A stretch of 63,542 nucleotides of DNA, the filler included, from an uncultured Methanosarcinales archaeon (lineage in GTDB: Archaea; Nanobdellota; Nanobdellia; Woesearchaeales; GW2011-AR9): NCBI GenBank assembly GCA_964434885.1. It is 3 parts of 3 records of this genome, joined end to end, with 100 filler letters (N's around TTAATTAATTAA, not from the genome) between each part and the next. Parts side by side here need not be neighbours in the genome. Positions count along the whole stretch, not along the records: positions 23,928 to 44,473 come from CAYSWQ010000011.1; positions 44,574 to 63,542 come from CAYSWQ010000014.1; 1 more part is not named here. One strand, 5' to 3'. This document shows positions 39,001 to 45,000 of the stretch, piece by piece (position 1 is the stretch's first letter; every line of letters starts with the position of its first letter). The position numbers are program-made.

Positions 39001-42000
39001 CCTTAACCGTAATCAAACTAGGCAATCTCAAAACTGGAGCCCGATTAGTATTATTAACCAAAACATTCCAAGATTTAAAAATCTCATCTTGTCCATCTGA
39101 AACTTTAACCAAGACTTTATGTTTTCCCGCACTAGAATAATTAAAAACATGTTCAAAAGATTTTTCTTGAGAATAATTAATTCCATCTACTTGCCACAAA
39201 ACATTGACTTTATCATTATCTACATCCTTAACATCTACTTTAAAATTAATTTTTTGTCCTTCTTTAACAACCACGTCAGTTTTAGGAGAAAAAGAAGTTA
39301 TTCCAGGAGGTGCATTTTTATTTTTAATTACTAAATTAATATTTTCTTTAATCAAAAATTCACCATCGCTAACCACTACTTTAGTTGAATATTTTCCTGC
39401 ATCAAAATAAGAAGTATCCCAAACACCTTGTTGATTAAATGGTTTTTCATAAGTAATTTTTAAATCATCTTTGTCTGGATCAGAAATTAATTTTTTCAAA
39501 TCAATTTTATCTCCTTCTTGATTTACTAAACTAGTATCTTTAATCTTAGGTGGTTGATTTTTATTCTTAACTATTAAAGTAATCTTTTCTTCCACTTCAT
39601 TACGGCCATCAGAAACCAAAATTTTAGTCTTATATGTTCCTGCATCATTTAAAGTTGTTTGCCATTCTCCACTCTTATTTAATGGGGAGAAATAATAAAC
39701 AAATACTTTATCTTGATCTAAATCAGAAACAGAAGGTTTCAATTTAACCAAATCCCCTTCAACAAATGTGAAAGTAGTAGTTGAAGTTTTCGCAATTAAT
39801 GTATTATTTGTAACTGCTTCTACAACCAGAACAGCAGAAAATAGTGAAACTAAAAAAAGAAAAAATACAAAAATTAAGCTATTTTTTGACGGCATTGTTC
39901 ATTCTGCCCTAACCTAATTTGATTTCACCAATAGTTGGTGGTCTGTTTTGATCAGTAATAGTCAAAGCAGAGGTTTTGGTTATTTTCTCTTTTCCATCAT
40001 CTACAGTCACCACTACACTATATACTCCGTGATCTGTATAACTTGTCTGCCAAGCACATTTATCTGAGCAAGACTTAGCTACTTCTCCAGATTTCAAAAA
40101 CTGACATCCAGTTGAACAAGAGATAACAATGGAAACATTTAGAGGATCTTTATCCAAATCACTTACTGTTGGAGCAATTTCTAATTTTTCTCCTTCTTTA
40201 ACAGTTAAATCTTTTAAACCACTAACTTTTGGTAAAACATTAACATCTTTAACTGTCAACAAAAATTTCTCTTTGCTTTCTAATTCTCCGTCTGAAGCAC
40301 TAATCACCACTTCATATTCACCAGCACTTGTATGATCAGTAGCCCAAAGTCCTTTTGATACAGGTTCAGATAATTTAACAGTTACTGAATCTCCGTTTGG
40401 ATCAATTACTTGTGGTTCTACTTTTACTGTTTCTCCTTCTTTAACAATTCTATCTTTAATTGTCTTGATTACTGGAGGTACATTAACTCTTTCCACTACA
40501 AGTAAAACATCTTTTTTACTTGTCAATTTTCCATCAGTAGCTGTAATAGTCACTACATATTCTCCTGCATCTCCATAGTTGGTTTTCCATTTTCCCTGTT
40601 GGTTCAAAGGTAATGAAAAACTATAAGTTATTTTATCTTTGTCTGGATCATCAATTTTAACATTCAAATTAACCAATTCACTTTCTTTTACAGAAATTTT
40701 TTGTAATTTAGAAGTATCAGTTTTTTGATTTAAAGGAACTTTAATCGCATCTTTCTTAGTATCAGCAGTTTTATTTGTGGCATCTTTAGTACCTACTACT
40801 GCCCCAGTTATTTTACTGGTGTCTTTTGTTGTATCTTTCGTTCCAGCAGTTTTATTATCTGCCAATCCCAATTCTTTTTCAATCTCTGCAATTTCCTTAA
40901 TCAAATCAGTATCACTACTGCTTGTTTTAGTTGGCTGATAAGATTTATAATTTAAACAACCAGTTAACATAACTACAGAAACTAACATAACTAACAATAA
41001 AATTCCACTCTTTTTCATTATTCTCATAATACACACCCCTCGTGATATACTTTTTTTAAATTAATTTAGCATTCCAAAATGATAACTGGTATTTAAAGAT
41101 TTAGACACAAGAGAGTATATACTAAAAAAGTTATTTCATGGAGAATAAAAATATGGCCCCGTCCAACATTATTCAACAAGTAAACAATTGGACAAAGTAT
41201 ATTAATAAGTTCATCTTTATTAAATCAGTGAAAAGATGAAATTACCAAAATACATGAACCCAAATTTAGCTGAAGAGATTGGTCTGCATCTGGGAGATGG
41301 TAGTATGAATTATTACAACAATAAAGGATTATATCAATTAAGAGGACATTTACATGATGATAAAAAACATTATAACCAAAGAATTAAATTTCTCTATAAA
41401 GAATTGTTTGATTTAGAATTAAGTTTACGAGAAATGCCTTCTTGCGGAGTTTATGGTTTCCAAATATGGTCTAATGAACTAGTTAAATTTAAAGAAAGTT
41501 TAGGTTTGCCGAAAGGCAAAAAGATTGATTTTTCAATTCCTGAAAGCATAATAAACAATTTAGAGTTTTGTAAACATTTTCTACGTGGCTTCTTTGATAC
41601 TGATGGCTGCCTATATATCGAAAACAAAAATGGTAAACCTTACCCAAGAATAGAAATAACTAGTATCTCAATTAATTTTTCTAAACAACTCAAAGAAATA
41701 TTAATTAAATTAGGATTTAAATTGTCACTTTACACAGAAAAACGCAAAAAACATGGTTGGAAAGATTTACATAGAATAATTATCAGAGGAAATAAAATGG
41801 CCAATAAATGGTTTTCTGAGATAAATCCAAAAAATCCTAAACATATAAAAAAGTTCATTAAAATAAATGGTGGCCCCGCGGAGATTTGAACTCCGGACCT
41901 TTATCGGGATTTCTCCTCACGATATCCGCTAACTTAGTATCAGTTTCGCAACAAGTTGCTCGTGCGCTCTACCAAGCTAAGCCACGGGGCCGTGAATTCC

Positions 42001-45000
42001 TAAAATAAGTCCCTATTTTTAAATATTTTGGAGAATTGGTACTCAGATAACTTTATCAATAAAAAATAAAGAAGTTAATAAAATTTATATAATGGGGTGG
42101 TTTCTATTTCAATCATGAGTGAAACTCCAAAAGTTGGCATCGGCGTAATTATTATTAAAGACGAAAAAGTATTAATTGGTAAAAGAATTGGTAGTCATGC
42201 TCAAAAATATTCTATTCCCGGAGGACATGTTGATATTGGTGAAACCTTTGAAACTGCAGCAATTAGAGAAATTAAAGAAGAAACTAATTTAAATATCATT
42301 AATCCTAAGGTAATCGCCATAACTAATAACCTACATACTTTTGATCAAGAAGGCAAACATTATGTTTCAATTATTTTAGTAGCTGAAAGTTTTTCTGGAG
42401 AATTACAAAGAACAGAACCTCATCGTTGTGCAGAATGGCTTTGGTGTAATCCTAATGAATTACCAACACCACATTTTGATGCCAGTCAAAAAGCCATATC
42501 TTGTTGGTTAAAAAAAACCCATTACGTTGGATAAATTTTTAAATCAATTCTTTTATTATTATCTTATTGGGGCCGTAGTGTAGCTTGGAAGAGTAAATTC
42601 AATTTGCTCTGAGTTACTATCACTGACGGCTGGGGTAGCATTCGCTTACAGAAGTCGTCTAACCGGGGTTCAAATCCTCGCGGCCCCAATCAAATATAAT
42701 CTTTAATCCTCTTATGCATTTCTTCATGTACTAACCAAATAACCAATATTACAGCATCTATATGAGGAGCAAAATTAGCTATTCCAAATTGTGGACAAAA
42801 ATTATTAATAAACAAAGGCCAAATATATTCTTTAGCTCCACCAAAAGTGCAATCCAACACTAAATGTAAAAACCAACCAGCAGAAATAACTCCAAAAATC
42901 CCAGCCCACTTTTTGTTCTTCCCCCAATAGAATAACAAACCAAATAATAAAAACAATAGTGGAAATAACAATGAGTGGGTAAACATGCCATGAATATCAA
43001 TTGTTGTACCTTTAAAAAAATTATATATCCATCCAATAACAAAATCAATATCTGGAAACAATCCTGCAATACCTCCCACTATTAACAAATATCTACGAAA
43101 CTTTCTCCTTCCAAAAACATAATGACGAAATAAATCCAAAATCACAATTGTCAATATTATATGAGTTACTGCTAAAGCCATAAAAAAAGTAAATTCTCAA
43201 AGAATATAAACTTGTTGGTTAAACTAATCTAAACAAATATTCCCTTGACTCAATTCTAAAAACAAATTTTTCATATTTGGAGACAACAAACAAGAACTAA
43301 GTTTGTTAATAGAAATATATTCAAAATGGTCAAAAGTTTCTGGTTCTTCAATTCGAGGAAACTGATTCTTTTTTATTTTGGCCAAAAACCAAATATAATT
43401 AAGTTCACGACCTTCATGTTCAAATTCTTTGGCACCAATCTTTTTCACAATTTCAACATCACATCCTAATTCTTCTTTTAATTCTCTTATCGCTGCTACT
43501 TCTGGTGTTTCATGATCATCTATTTTTCCACCAGGCAATTCATACCAAGAAGTTTTTTTTCTATTTAATAAAAGAATTTTATTTTCTTTAATGATTACGC
43601 ATCCTGCTAGATTAACATCATTCATATTAAAAGTATGGACCAGCCGAGACTTTCAAATTAATTTTTGAACTCGGGATCACCCGATCTTTAGATCAAAAAG
43701 CCGTTGACTTAATTGCATGCCAACCGGGCATTCTACCAGACTGAACTACTGGCCCATCCAAATGAGTCTTTCTTGTTTTTTTAAAAAACTTTTGTCATTT
43801 AAACAATAAACTTATAAAATATAAAATAATCCTCAAAACATGAAAGAGGTTGTTAAAAAAGAGATTTTAAATTTGTTATCTCAAGCTTTTGCAATTCTAA
43901 AAGAAAGAAAAGAAGAAGATTCGGAAAGATTAAAAAAATTAAGTAACAAAGGAATTGAAAGTATTGCTTTATACAAAGATATGGATCTTATTTCAGTAAC
44001 TGTAATGATTTATTCTTTATCTAAAATTGTCTCTTGTATTTCTCCCACCGATTATCAATATTTAATTAAGGATGTGGAAAAAGCAAACAATTCTCTACAA
44101 AAAAATAAATTTACATTATATAATAAAAGTATCAGACTAATTTACAAAATCATCCACAAATGTGATGCTCAAGTAAAAGTTCATTTAGGAGATGTTATGC
44201 ATGCTGCTAGAGTTAAGAAAAGTGCAGTTCTTCTAAGCAAAGGATTATCCATTGGACAAGCTGCCGGATTGATGGGATTATCCAACTGGGATCTACAAAA
44301 ATATGCTGGAAAAACTACTGCTTATGAATCCCACCATGAAGCTATTCGTGCTGATCAACGCTTAATGAATTCACTAAAAATGTTTGGGGTAATTTCAAAA
44401 TGAAATCTTTTCCAAATAACAAGCCCGAAAAAAAGGAGGATAGAAAATGGTAAAATCTCTTTTTTTAGATGTTNNNNNNNNNNNNNNNNNNNNNNNNNNN
44501 NNNNNNNNNNNNNNNNNTTAATTAATTAANNNNNNNNNNNNNNNNNNNNNNNNNNNNNNNNNNNNNNNNNNNNACTCTAGCAATTGAAATATCCTTCCCA
44601 TGACCATTAAGCTCTCTTTTGTTTACATCATAAGAAATGCCTGCGCCGATATTATCATTTATTAATTTTCTTATATCTTCTTCAGATAAATTACTAGGTA
44701 AGTAAAGAATGTGTTCTGTACCATTCAAATAAACATTAGTCCCCTGCCCGCGAATTTTATCAACAAGAGAACTAGAAGCTCGGAAAGTATTGCTTGCACC
44801 AGAACCAACACCATTTAGACTAATTTCCCAAACTTGGCTAGAAATTTCACCAGTAGAAACTTTTCTTAACGGTCCAGATTTCTTTCTTTTTTTTCTCCCC
44901 ATCTTATGATTACTCTATAATAGTTACAACAAGATATATTTTTGAGAATATATTTAAAAAACTTTCGTAAAATAGAGGAAGAAACAAAGAATTCGTCCTC

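Follow-up and report, generated by a model that had tools for sequence, protein, structure and literature searches.

Introduction

Archaeal tRNA genes carrying several introns are already known, being established in the Thermoproteales and in ARMAN (PMC4033280). In the Thermoproteales (Sugahara 2008 and Fujishima 2010, via PMC4033280), most tRNA genes are interrupted, with up to three bulge-helix-bulge (BHB) introns per gene. Besides position 37/38, these introns occupy the D arm, anticodon stem, variable region and T-loop, and genes overlooked by standard finders are solved by BHB removal. ARMAN-2 (Micrarchaeum), a DPANN archaeon, has multiple introns, one of which has a relaxed BHB and is located in a T-loop, and possesses an epsilon2 splicing endonuclease (EndA) of 395 aa with three units and an ASL loop (PMC3488258). 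Disrupted tRNA genes have also been flagged in DPANN including a Woesearchaeote, where many of them occur together with a single short EndA (Kaneta 2018, PMC5829648); the same article connects the disruption with the presence of an L3 insertion in EndA, and regards DPANN tRNA sets obtained with tRNAscan-SE as incomplete and in need of manual curation.

The host described here, a tiny marine archaeon of the Woesearchaeales (DPANN) according to its names and habitat labels, is represented by a MAG of 92% completeness and constitutes a further case. It shares with the Thermoproteales all of the gene-level features listed above, but is a small-genome DPANN archaeon from a marine habitat rather than a member of the Crenarchaeota. 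With ARMAN-2 it has in common the multiple introns and the relaxed intron within a T-loop, and with the DPANN of Kaneta 2018 the single short EndA beside many disrupted tRNA genes.

tRNA genes in the window and in the genome

The window, namely the whole stretch of 63,542 nucleotides that was analyzed, contains at least five tRNA genes (Table 1), whereas ARAGORN under default settings and Rfam at the gathering score each reported a single one, Val-TAC. The interval 41868-43759 contains three tRNA genes, Ile-GAU, Pro-GGG and Ala-GGC, each with two or three short introns, and their positions, identities and intron sizes were all in agreement with the initial annotation. The genes in this interval were covered by contigs from runs of two studies with 0 differences, introns included; no RNA run was among the runs matching host DNA. 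In addition, a real tRNA relic is located at 14273-14333, beside Val-UAC.

Table 1. Coordinates of the tRNA genes, their predicted introns and the processing enzymes.
Feature	Position	Strand	Properties
tRNA-Val(GAC)	7031..7120	+	one canonical 17-nt intron at 7068-7084; strict BHB; score 46; outside the interval 41868-43759
tRNA-Val(UAC)	14155..14230	+	intron-less; encoded CCA; sole window tRNA seen by standard tools
tRNA-Ile(GAU)	41868..41991	-	three introns; gene body 41871-41991; discriminator 41871; encoded CCA 41868-41870; cloverleaf score 55
Ile-GAU intron 1	41945..41960	-	16 nt; anticodon stem 30/31 (border can slide to 31/32, flanking bases repeat); complete BHB: central 4 bp, outer 2 bp, inner 3 bp
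Ile-GAU intron 2	41924..41937	-	14 nt; canonical 37/38; central helix 3/4 pairs, outer helix 5 bp
Ile-GAU intron 3	41901..41917	-	17 nt; anticodon-stem/variable-loop border 43/44; relaxed HBh': central 4 bp, inner 3 bp, outer 0-1 bp
tRNA-Pro(GGG)	42569..42688	+	two introns; cloverleaf score 50
Pro-GGG intron 1	42589..42616	+	28 nt; D-loop after G19; strict BHB: central 4 bp, outer 3 bp, inner 8 bp
Pro-GGG intron 2	42636..42653	+	18 nt; 37/38; central helix 3/4 pairs, outer 5 bp, inner 2 bp
tRNA-Ala(GGC)	43636..43755	-	two introns; G3:U70 pair present; cloverleaf score 53
Ala-GGC intron 1	43686..43717	-	32 nt; 37/38; relaxed hBH: central 4 bp, outer 7 bp, inner 1 bp
Ala-GGC intron 2	43650..43663	-	14 nt; T-loop 59/60; central helix 4 bp with T-loop bases 54-57; outer helix = T stem, 5 bp
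EndA	C6:9621-10238		208 aa; sole locus
RtcB	C56:1757-3049		561.8 bits

Genome-wide, 26 solid tRNA genes were counted, of which 5 are intron-less and 21 interrupted (one intron in 10, two in 9 and three in 2), and 18 of their 34 introns are at non-canonical positions. These figures replace the 27 genes, 22 of them interrupted, of the initial annotation, and its minimum of 8 multi-intron genes becomes 11. ARAGORN reported 6 tRNAs by default and 19 with introns allowed; compared with the 26 solid loci, the latter run agreed on the anticodon at 10, disagreed at 8 and made no call at the other 8. All five misnamings previously attributed to this program were reproduced, among them Ser-AGA for Ile-GAU and Phe-GAA for the Val(GAC) gene, and its Leu-CAG at C13:14732 seems to be spurious. 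The earlier statement that eight genes are invisible to both ARAGORN and Rfam stands only in part: Pro-GGG, for which ARAGORN made no call even with introns allowed, passes the Rfam cut-off at 32.9 bits, though solely in a more sensitive whole-genome search and not in the standard window search, and three more genes give sub-threshold partial hits. Ile-GAU scored 41.8 bits in the sensitive search; Ala-GGC was detected neither by ARAGORN nor, with the limit relaxed to E<=1, by Rfam. Among the five loci formerly listed as unsolved, two now have clean solutions, a three-intron Met-CAT at C21:13707 (score 55) and Lys-TTT at C59:211 (score 54), while C5:6143, C5:32741 and C51:716 remain unsolved or doubtful. 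About 15-20 expected isoacceptors were not found by Rfam or the cloverleaf solver in this 92% complete bin.

Interrupted tRNA genes are the rule in this Woesearchaeales lineage, as seen from the 21 of 26 genes here and from the few Rfam tRNA hits in related genomes (3-41 each, and 12 in the closed genome).

Restoration of cloverleaves by removal of BHB-bounded stretches

We consider it very likely that Ile-GAU, Pro-GGG and Ala-GGC are functional archaeal tRNA genes, the transcripts of which contain two to three short BHB introns that are predicted to be spliced out. At each exon-intron border, the pre-tRNA would fold into a 4-bp helix between 3-nt bulges, both of which would be cut by EndA; the exons would be joined by the RtcB ligase, and a normal cloverleaf would be left after all splicing rounds. 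The splice junctions of these genes are predicted, not mapped.

An independent solver was employed, in which BHB-bounded stretches are removed and the resulting cloverleaf is scored, with the reversed genome as a control. After the removal, all stems and conserved bases were intact in the three genes, and their scores (Table 1) stood beside those of 51-56 for the intron-less tRNAs of the genome. In the real genome 24 loci reached a score of at least 49, whereas none of the 1253 processed candidates (of 1620) did so in the reversed genome, where the maximum was 48. The BHB filter, which 1.1% of random start/end pairs pass (15,500 of 1,404,200), was passed by all seven introns of the three genes; 2 of these have 3/4 central pairs, 3-4 are relaxed and 1-2 are strict.

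It could be argued that some of the introns reflect over-fitting by the search, the cloverleaf being right and the borders wrong or spurious. Indeed, the cloverleaf score is weak by itself, as an unsolved locus attained 51 when two deletions could be placed freely, regardless of the BHB rule; borders slide at repeated flanking bases, e.g., 30/31 versus 31/32 in Ile-GAU; and C31:9121, a locus with nested introns that scored at least 49, was judged unreliable and dropped from the counts. However, the borders of all seven introns of the interval match those indicated by orthologues with no introns or only some of them, and the reversed genome is devoid of scores at that threshold. We therefore regard over-fitting as very unlikely.

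Intron sites and orthologues in related genomes

The orthologues of Ile-GAU in related genomes (referred to by their G numbers) were in good agreement with the predicted three-intron structure. In G018, the gene is intron-less, and the predicted spliced product is identical to it in the D arm, anticodon arm and variable loop. In G012 and G004, it contains three introns at sites identical to those of the host, with other lengths and compensatory changes: two inner-helix pairs of intron 1 are changed on both sides (alignment read by eye), the counterpart of intron 2 has a central helix of 4/4 pairs, and the intron at the site of intron 3 measures 21 nt in G012 and 17 nt in G004. The outer helix of intron 2 in the host corresponds to the anticodon stem and forms only when intron 1 is already out, and the splicing of Ile-GAU is therefore presumably ordered. 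Among the relatives' Ile loci, 2 of 7 had no solution at the threshold, and one had a doubtful GAC solution at 46.

A LAGLIDADG_3 gene (41236-41889) overlaps the 3' end of Ile-GAU, and 5 of the 10 genomic LAGLIDADG_3 matches lie within ~135 nt of a tRNA locus. The insertions might accordingly be taken for mobile-DNA remnants tied to LAGLIDADG homing-endonuclease genes, which are tolerated and not removed by EndA. Such an origin is, however, extremely improbable, given that the insertions are 13-63 nt in length, non-coding and each furnished with an EndA recognition motif, that the three-intron Ile gene of G012 and G004 has no adjoining endonuclease gene, and that cloverleaf folding would be impossible for a tRNA retaining them. 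In contrast to the Thermoproteales, no similarity pointing to transposition was found between introns of different genes of the host (best local score 15).

In Pro-GGG, the gene position of the D-loop intron is shared with G014 (37 nt) and G021 (43 nt). G014 has this intron only, its D arm being identical to that of the host; G031 has the 37/38 intron only, G021 has D-loop and T-loop introns, and the gene is intron-less in G039 and G001. No solution at the threshold was obtained for 2 of 10 Pro loci of the relatives.

Excision of the T-loop intron from Ala-GGC restores a 7-nt T-loop. The orthologue in G015 is intron-less, with an anticodon arm identical to the host's, and that in G033, which belongs to another family, has solely a T-loop intron at the identical site. 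The 59/60 site is also interrupted in two other tRNA genes of the host, His-GTG and Asp-GTC, and, among the relatives, in Ala of G033, Lys of G035, Pro of G021 and Val of G020. Val-UAC likewise differs between genomes, with 0 introns in the host and three in the G020 orthologue. Introns are gained and lost between genera.

These comparisons also bear on whether the three loci are decaying tRNA pseudogenes with insertions, neither spliced nor used, in keeping with their being missed by standard tools, with the occurrence of a genuine relic elsewhere in the window, and with the lack of an RNA run among those matching host DNA. Against decay, stems and conserved bases are all intact once the inserts are removed, each insertion is BHB-bounded against the low background of that filter, and the sites of insertion persist from genus to genus, accompanied by compensatory changes. 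Moreover, ARAGORN, Rfam and the cloverleaf solver revealed no second copy of Ile-GAU, Pro-GGG or Ala-GGC in this genome, and just two orphan strong T-arms were detected genome-wide, one inside a contiguous locus that is unsolved, the other in the relic beside Val-UAC. Decay of these loci is hence highly improbable, and functional, intron-bearing tRNA genes remain our preferred reading.

The splicing endonuclease of the host

The single EndA locus of 208 aa given in the initial annotation was confirmed by profile searches, and its overall interpretation, tRNA genes with several BHB introns served by one EndA, was borne out by the agreement of the solver, BHB borders, orthologues, and the presence of EndA together with RtcB. 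EndA, whose length falls within the ~170-210 aa of alpha4-type enzymes, comprises an N-terminal domain, PF02778 (residues 39-103), and the catalytic C-terminal domain, PF01974 (residues 114-200), preceded by a Lys-rich N-terminal tail of ~36 aa that is probably disordered; the monomer structure model was poor (mean pLDDT 62.8). No second (beta/structural) subunit was found in the genome with Pfam or a family profile, both at E<=10, an absence that is not absolute in a bin of 92% completeness. Exactly one significant EndA was likewise found in 39 of 41 related genomes, the closed genome included. These observations suggested that the enzyme is a homotetramer of one alpha-type protein.

The catalytic Tyr-His-Lys triad is present as Y144, H154 and K185, none of which varies across 24 sequences. 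In the ARMAN-2 EndA, the counterparts of Y144 and K185 are Y236 and K282, named catalytic in PMC3488258, while H154 falls on the His of both 3IEY and 1A79. Sequence comparison with the PDB placed 3IEY chain A first (E 2.3e-35), the EndA alpha of Nanoarchaeum equitans, which has the same catalytic core. N. equitans also has a beta subunit, a 6-residue basic loop preceding the catalytic His and split tRNA genes, whereas in the host no beta homologue was found, the loop is absent and no split gene was shown. As regards split or permuted genes, the two orphan T-arms described above were the only ones in the genome, and no search aimed at separately encoded halves was made. Residues 68-208 aligned without gaps to 1A79 (E 2.8e-32), the alpha4 EndA of Methanocaldococcus jannaschii, which resembles that of the host in being encoded by a single gene with the same domain order but lacks its Lys-rich tail.

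None of the known specificity loops was recognized. The L3/NEQ loop, to which Kaneta 2018 ties disruption (PMC5829648), is absent, as 9 residues separate the Tyr from the His as in 1A79, versus 15 in 3IEY. The L2/ASL loop is absent as well, there being no counterpart of the insertion that 4FZ2 shows in its ASL region; in this respect and in its length the enzyme differs from ARMAN-2 EndA. The L1/CSL insertion also appears to be absent, since the N-terminal domain before the aligned block is equal in length to that of 1A79, as read from alignment ranges and not at residue level against A. pernix. The single alpha-type EndA without the Crenarchaea-specific loop thus contrasts with the (alpha-beta)2 EndA of the Thermoproteales (PMC4033280).

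The coexistence of a loop-less EndA with many relaxed introns was the one unexpected point. The published rule predicts that relaxed BHB motifs are not cut by an alpha4 EndA devoid of specificity loops, and the M. jannaschii enzyme is a strict-BHB enzyme acting on canonical introns (PMC5829648), whereas the host genome has many relaxed and non-canonical ones. The substrate range predicted from the introns implies that the host EndA must accept relaxed BHB forms. Tentatively, we suggest as possible rather than probable that a plain single-subunit alpha4-type EndA without the CSL, ASL or NEQ loop processes the tRNA introns of the Woesearchaeales, nearly half of them relaxed BHB, on a scale like that of the Thermoproteales. 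The Lys-rich N-terminal tail would not be the determinant, because some related families without it have equally few detectable tRNAs; the determinant would instead reside in the conserved core of EndA, e.g., in the basic residue that is invariant in the loop preceding the catalytic His. If this is true, the association published for tRNA gene disruption and inserts in EndA would no longer hold, and the Woesearchaeales would represent a further, independent route to broad specificity of EndA.

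Detection of the tRNA genes

The 63.5-kb window is made up of contigs C9, C11, and C14 of a single assembly. This assembly (1.07 Mb in 66 contigs, 31.7% G+C) is 92% complete, with zero contamination reported. Source labels of the best homologues of its splicing endonuclease EndA include "Candidatus Woesearchaeota archaeon" and "Nanoarchaeota archaeon", and the same DNA recurs in sequencing runs labelled marine or seawater metagenome; we take the organism to be a marine member of the Woesearchaeales (DPANN). In the whole window, the Val-UAC gene was the sole tRNA detected both by ARAGORN at default settings and by Rfam at the gathering score. 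Genome-wide, ARAGORN returned 6 tRNAs by default and 19 when introns were allowed, and a sensitive Rfam search gave 15 above the cut-off plus 6 weaker matches. When the intron-aware ARAGORN calls were set against the 26 genes that we regard as solid, the anticodon agreed for 10 and differed for 8, and the remaining 8 were missed.

Three interrupted tRNA genes on contig C11

The interval 41868-43759 on contig C11 holds interrupted genes for Ile-GAU, Pro-GGG, and Ala-GGC, which are summarized in the table together with the other features discussed here. These were obtained with a solver that successively deletes at most three stretches, each bounded by a bulge-helix-bulge (BHB) motif having a 4-bp central helix and a 3-nt bulge on each strand, with the cut placed after the second bulge base; the product was rated by our own cloverleaf score, on which the intron-less tRNAs of this genome reach 51-56. 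The Ile-GAU solution was missed when all BHB helices were demanded in the unspliced precursor and was found with stepwise removal. Since the 5-bp outer helix of its canonical intron forms only once the anticodon-stem intron has been removed, splicing of this precursor is suggested to be ordered. In Ala-GGC, which was lost from the genome-wide search with 20 candidates kept per step and recovered with 40, the outer helix of the T-loop intron is the T stem, and the central helix is built with T-loop bases 54-57.

Coordinates of the features discussed (positions along the window, or on the contig or sequence named; intron sites and lengths are predicted)
Feature	Position	Strand	Details
tRNA-Val(UAC)	14155		intron-less
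Val-UAC relic	14273-14333	+	45 nt downstream of the Val-UAC gene
Hairpin in relic	14275-14303	+
LAGLIDADG_3 homing-endonuclease-like ORF	41236-41889	+	217 aa; E 1.6e-12
tRNA-Ile(GAU)	41871-41991	-	CCA encoded; score 55; introns of 16 nt at 30/31 (anticodon stem), 14 nt at 37/38, 17 nt at 43/44
NUDIX hydrolase gene	42097-42534	+	E 1.4e-22
tRNA-Pro(GGG)	42569-42688	+	score 50; introns of 28 nt in D-loop after G19, 18 nt at 37/38
YdjM-family membrane protein gene	42690-43181	-	E 1.6e-15
NUDIX hydrolase gene	43224-43625	-	E 3.5e-18
tRNA-Ala(GGC)	43636-43755	-	G3:U70; score 53; introns of 32 nt at 37/38, 14 nt in T-loop at 59/60
Archaeal SRP RNA	58837-59107	-	98.1 bits (gathering score 96.5)
tRNA with anticodon TAT	C24:8735-8870		class I; two introns; score 52
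tRNA-Arg(CCU)	C30:281-418		63-nt intron
T-arm locus	C1:71574-71785
T-arm locus	C12:19341-19523
T-arm locus	C31:9121-9265		left out of the gene count as doubtful
Hairpin in relatives	L072:199-232
Hairpin in relatives	L068:1492-1515

The two NUDIX hydrolase genes and the YdjM-family gene lie interleaved with the three tRNA genes. The LAGLIDADG_3 ORF ends within the 3' end of the convergent Ile-GAU gene, giving an overlap of about 19-22 nt. Of the 10 LAGLIDADG_3 matches in the genome, 5 are no more than about 135 nt away from a tRNA locus, namely Ile-GAU, Cys, Ser-GGA, His, or the candidate at C51:716; of five relatives, G014 alone has such a match adjoining Ile-GAU, and across six genomes the number of endonucleases showed no trend with tRNA disruption. 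One idea is that these proteins are linked to intron turnover, or that the introns shield their target site.

Because DNA contigs from two studies span the interrupted genes with zero differences, assembly error was excluded as their origin. A look-up of sequencing runs for 41800-43800 listed no RNA run with this DNA. An apparent joint at 42588/42661 was considered as a spliced form and rejected, as a paralogous Pro-UGG gene matches both of its ends.

The BHB filter was passed by only 1.1% of random start/end pairs. The cloverleaf score by itself is no proof: when any two deletions were allowed, with the BHB rule lifted, a locus left unsolved by the solver reached 51. In the reversed genome, which has the same composition and pairing potential, none of the 1253 of 1620 candidates processed attained 49 (maximum 48); in the real genome, 24 loci after merging were at or above 49 (1554 of 1580 candidates scored).

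Comparison with related genomes

Each gene was searched against forty related genomes, and this comparison of sequences is the strongest line of evidence for the predicted introns. Of the 7 Ile-GAU loci run, 4 gave Ile-GAU solutions, 1 a doubtful GAC (score 46), and 2 none at the threshold. The gene of G018 is intron-less at 74 nt and matches the predicted spliced product exactly in the D arm, the anticodon arm, and the variable loop. The genes of G012 and G004 share all three intron sites with the gene here, at other lengths (17/16/21 and 17/16/17 nt, respectively), with the inner helix of intron 1 preserved, as judged by eye, through two-sided changes; G005 gave a one-intron solution. Likewise, the Ala-GGC gene is intron-less in G015 with an identical anticodon arm, and in G033, which belongs to another family of the same order, it is interrupted only in the T-loop, by an 18-nt intron at the site used here. 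For Pro-GGG, 8 of 10 loci were solved: the gene is intron-less in G001 and G039, has only the D-loop intron in G014 (same position, same D arm), a D-loop and a T-loop intron in G021, and only the 37/38 intron in G031. The pattern is reversed for Val-UAC, with zero introns here and three in G020. Within one family, a given tRNA gene has zero, one, or three introns, with the sites fixed. The initial annotation had read these loci as multi-intron BHB tRNA genes, a reading borne out by the BHB-only solver, the reversed-genome control, and the orthologues.

In the relic downstream of Val-UAC, a hairpin precedes the 3' part of a second T-arm, an acceptor 3' strand, and CCA, near-identical to the 3' end of Val-UAC. 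The relic is homologous to the three-intron gene of G020, namely to the 3' part of its 55-nt T-loop intron and the 3' exon, and appears to be what is left of an older copy with introns that the intron-less copy replaced. The small hairpin is kept in three settings, the relic, the G020 T-loop intron, and, at 91% identity, an unrelated intergenic region of G016. Its stem is 5-6 bp long, GAA stands on either side of an internal or 7-nt loop, and the hairpin may act as a mobile RNA motif or bind a protein.

Genome-wide tRNA set and introns

The 26 solid genes comprise 23 of the 24 loci scoring at least 49, plus Ala-GGC, Val-GAC, and Thr-GGU. Five are intron-less and 21 interrupted, 10 by one intron, 9 by two, and 2 (Ile-GAU and elongator Met-CAU) by three, in close agreement with the 27 genes, 22 with introns and at least 8 with several, of the initial annotation. 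Of 33 introns fitting the solver geometry (13-63 nt), 15 lie at 37/38 and 18 elsewhere: once each at 15/16, 20/20a, 21/22, 22/23, 28/29, 29/30, and 38/39, twice each at 19/20, 30/31, 43/44, and 53/54, and three times at 59/60. The motif is strict in 13 of them, has one central mismatch in 5, and lacks the outer helix in 8 and the inner helix in 7. The Thr-GGU intron, with a 3' bulge exceeding 3 nt, falls outside this geometry. No convincing sequence similarity was found among the 33 introns, and intron transposition is thus unsupported. The long introns were considered as possible carriers of C/D-box guide RNAs, and Rfam gave zero snoRNA matches at 7 loci (E<=1); by eye, a heptamer resembling box C was noted close to the 5' end of the Arg-CCU intron, which matched no Rfam small-RNA family.

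Among the loci for which no convincing cloverleaf had been reported, two are now solved, and three are still without a firm solution: C5:6143 (ambiguous under brute force), C5:32741 (no solution), and C51:716 (score of only 46). The three T-arm loci on C1, C12, and C31 share a similar T-arm, a TTCGAAC loop, and long variable-arm-like stretches, with dubious three-intron solutions (scores 45-51), and may be class II (Leu-type) tRNA genes beyond the solver. About 15-20 isoacceptors are still missing, in line with the earlier estimate of about 15, and only two strong orphan T-arms were seen in the genome; the T-arms of the missing genes are probably interrupted or atypical, unless these genes fall in the absent 8% of the genome. 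Given the TAT-anticodon tRNA on C24 (Ile-UAU by the code; named Ser-CGA by ARAGORN), AUA may be read by a UAU tRNA instead of a modified CAU, as it is in other small archaea.

The splicing enzymes

EndA is encoded by a single 208-aa gene on contig C6 with both Pfam domains; the family profile at E<=10 yielded no second copy in this genome, so that the single gene originally noted stands. The ligase RtcB is present, and exactly one significant EndA was found in 39 of 41 related genomes, the closed one included. As the structure model was poor in its C-terminal half (mean pLDDT 62.8), the enzyme was compared by sequence alignment to PDB chains, the best matches being the Nanoarchaeum equitans alpha subunit, M. 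kandleri, and M. jannaschii. Residues 68-208 align gap-free to M. jannaschii, and the catalytic Tyr, His, and Lys are invariant. In contrast to N. equitans EndA, the enzyme lacks the 6-residue basic loop before the catalytic His, assigned to residues 90-98 (Hirata 2012) and renamed L3 (Kaneta 2018; PMC5829648); it also lacks the insertions of ARMAN-2 EndA in the ASL region.

The family has a Lys-rich N-terminal tail of variable length (pLDDT <50), considered as a specificity element. This proposal is weakened by the absence of the tail in G040, G037, G027, and G028, of which G040 and G037 still give as few as 12 and 9 Rfam tRNA matches, while G028 gives 41. Because tail-less related families show equally few detectable tRNAs, the tail is probably not the key.

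Discussion

Multi-intron tRNA gene structure is already known. For Thermoproteales, genes with several BHB introns, as many as three, at non-canonical sites are described, with more than half of the genes affected (PMC4033280); for ARMAN-2, relaxed T-loop introns are described (PMC3488258). A DPANN survey that included one Woesearchaeote tied alpha4 EndAs with L3 to more disruption, and mentioned incomplete tRNA sets and the need for manual curation (Kaneta 2018; PMC5829648); our literature search for Woesearchaeal multi-intron tRNAs retrieved no other paper. The structure extends across the lineage, since the relatives, a closed genome included, yield only 3-41 Rfam tRNA matches each.

According to the co-evolution rule stated in that survey, an EndA such as this one is expected to be strict, and by our own criteria on predicted motifs about 45% of the introns in this genome count as relaxed. 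The occurrence of a loop-less EndA beside many relaxed introns is the sole point beyond what is in print, and rests on the predicted motifs and an inferred homotetramer.

As to annotation, the genome has at least 26 tRNA genes, of which standard tools detect 6-19 and mis-name many. Because the relatives, too, yield few Rfam matches, the tRNA counts by which DPANN genomes and their supposed host dependence are judged are too low. These genes are of use in annotation and in work on intron turnover, and the family is a good natural series for following intron gain and loss. They also pose a testable question on the loop-less EndA, which, as a single enzyme, offers a cheap and direct test of what determines the substrate range of splicing endonucleases.
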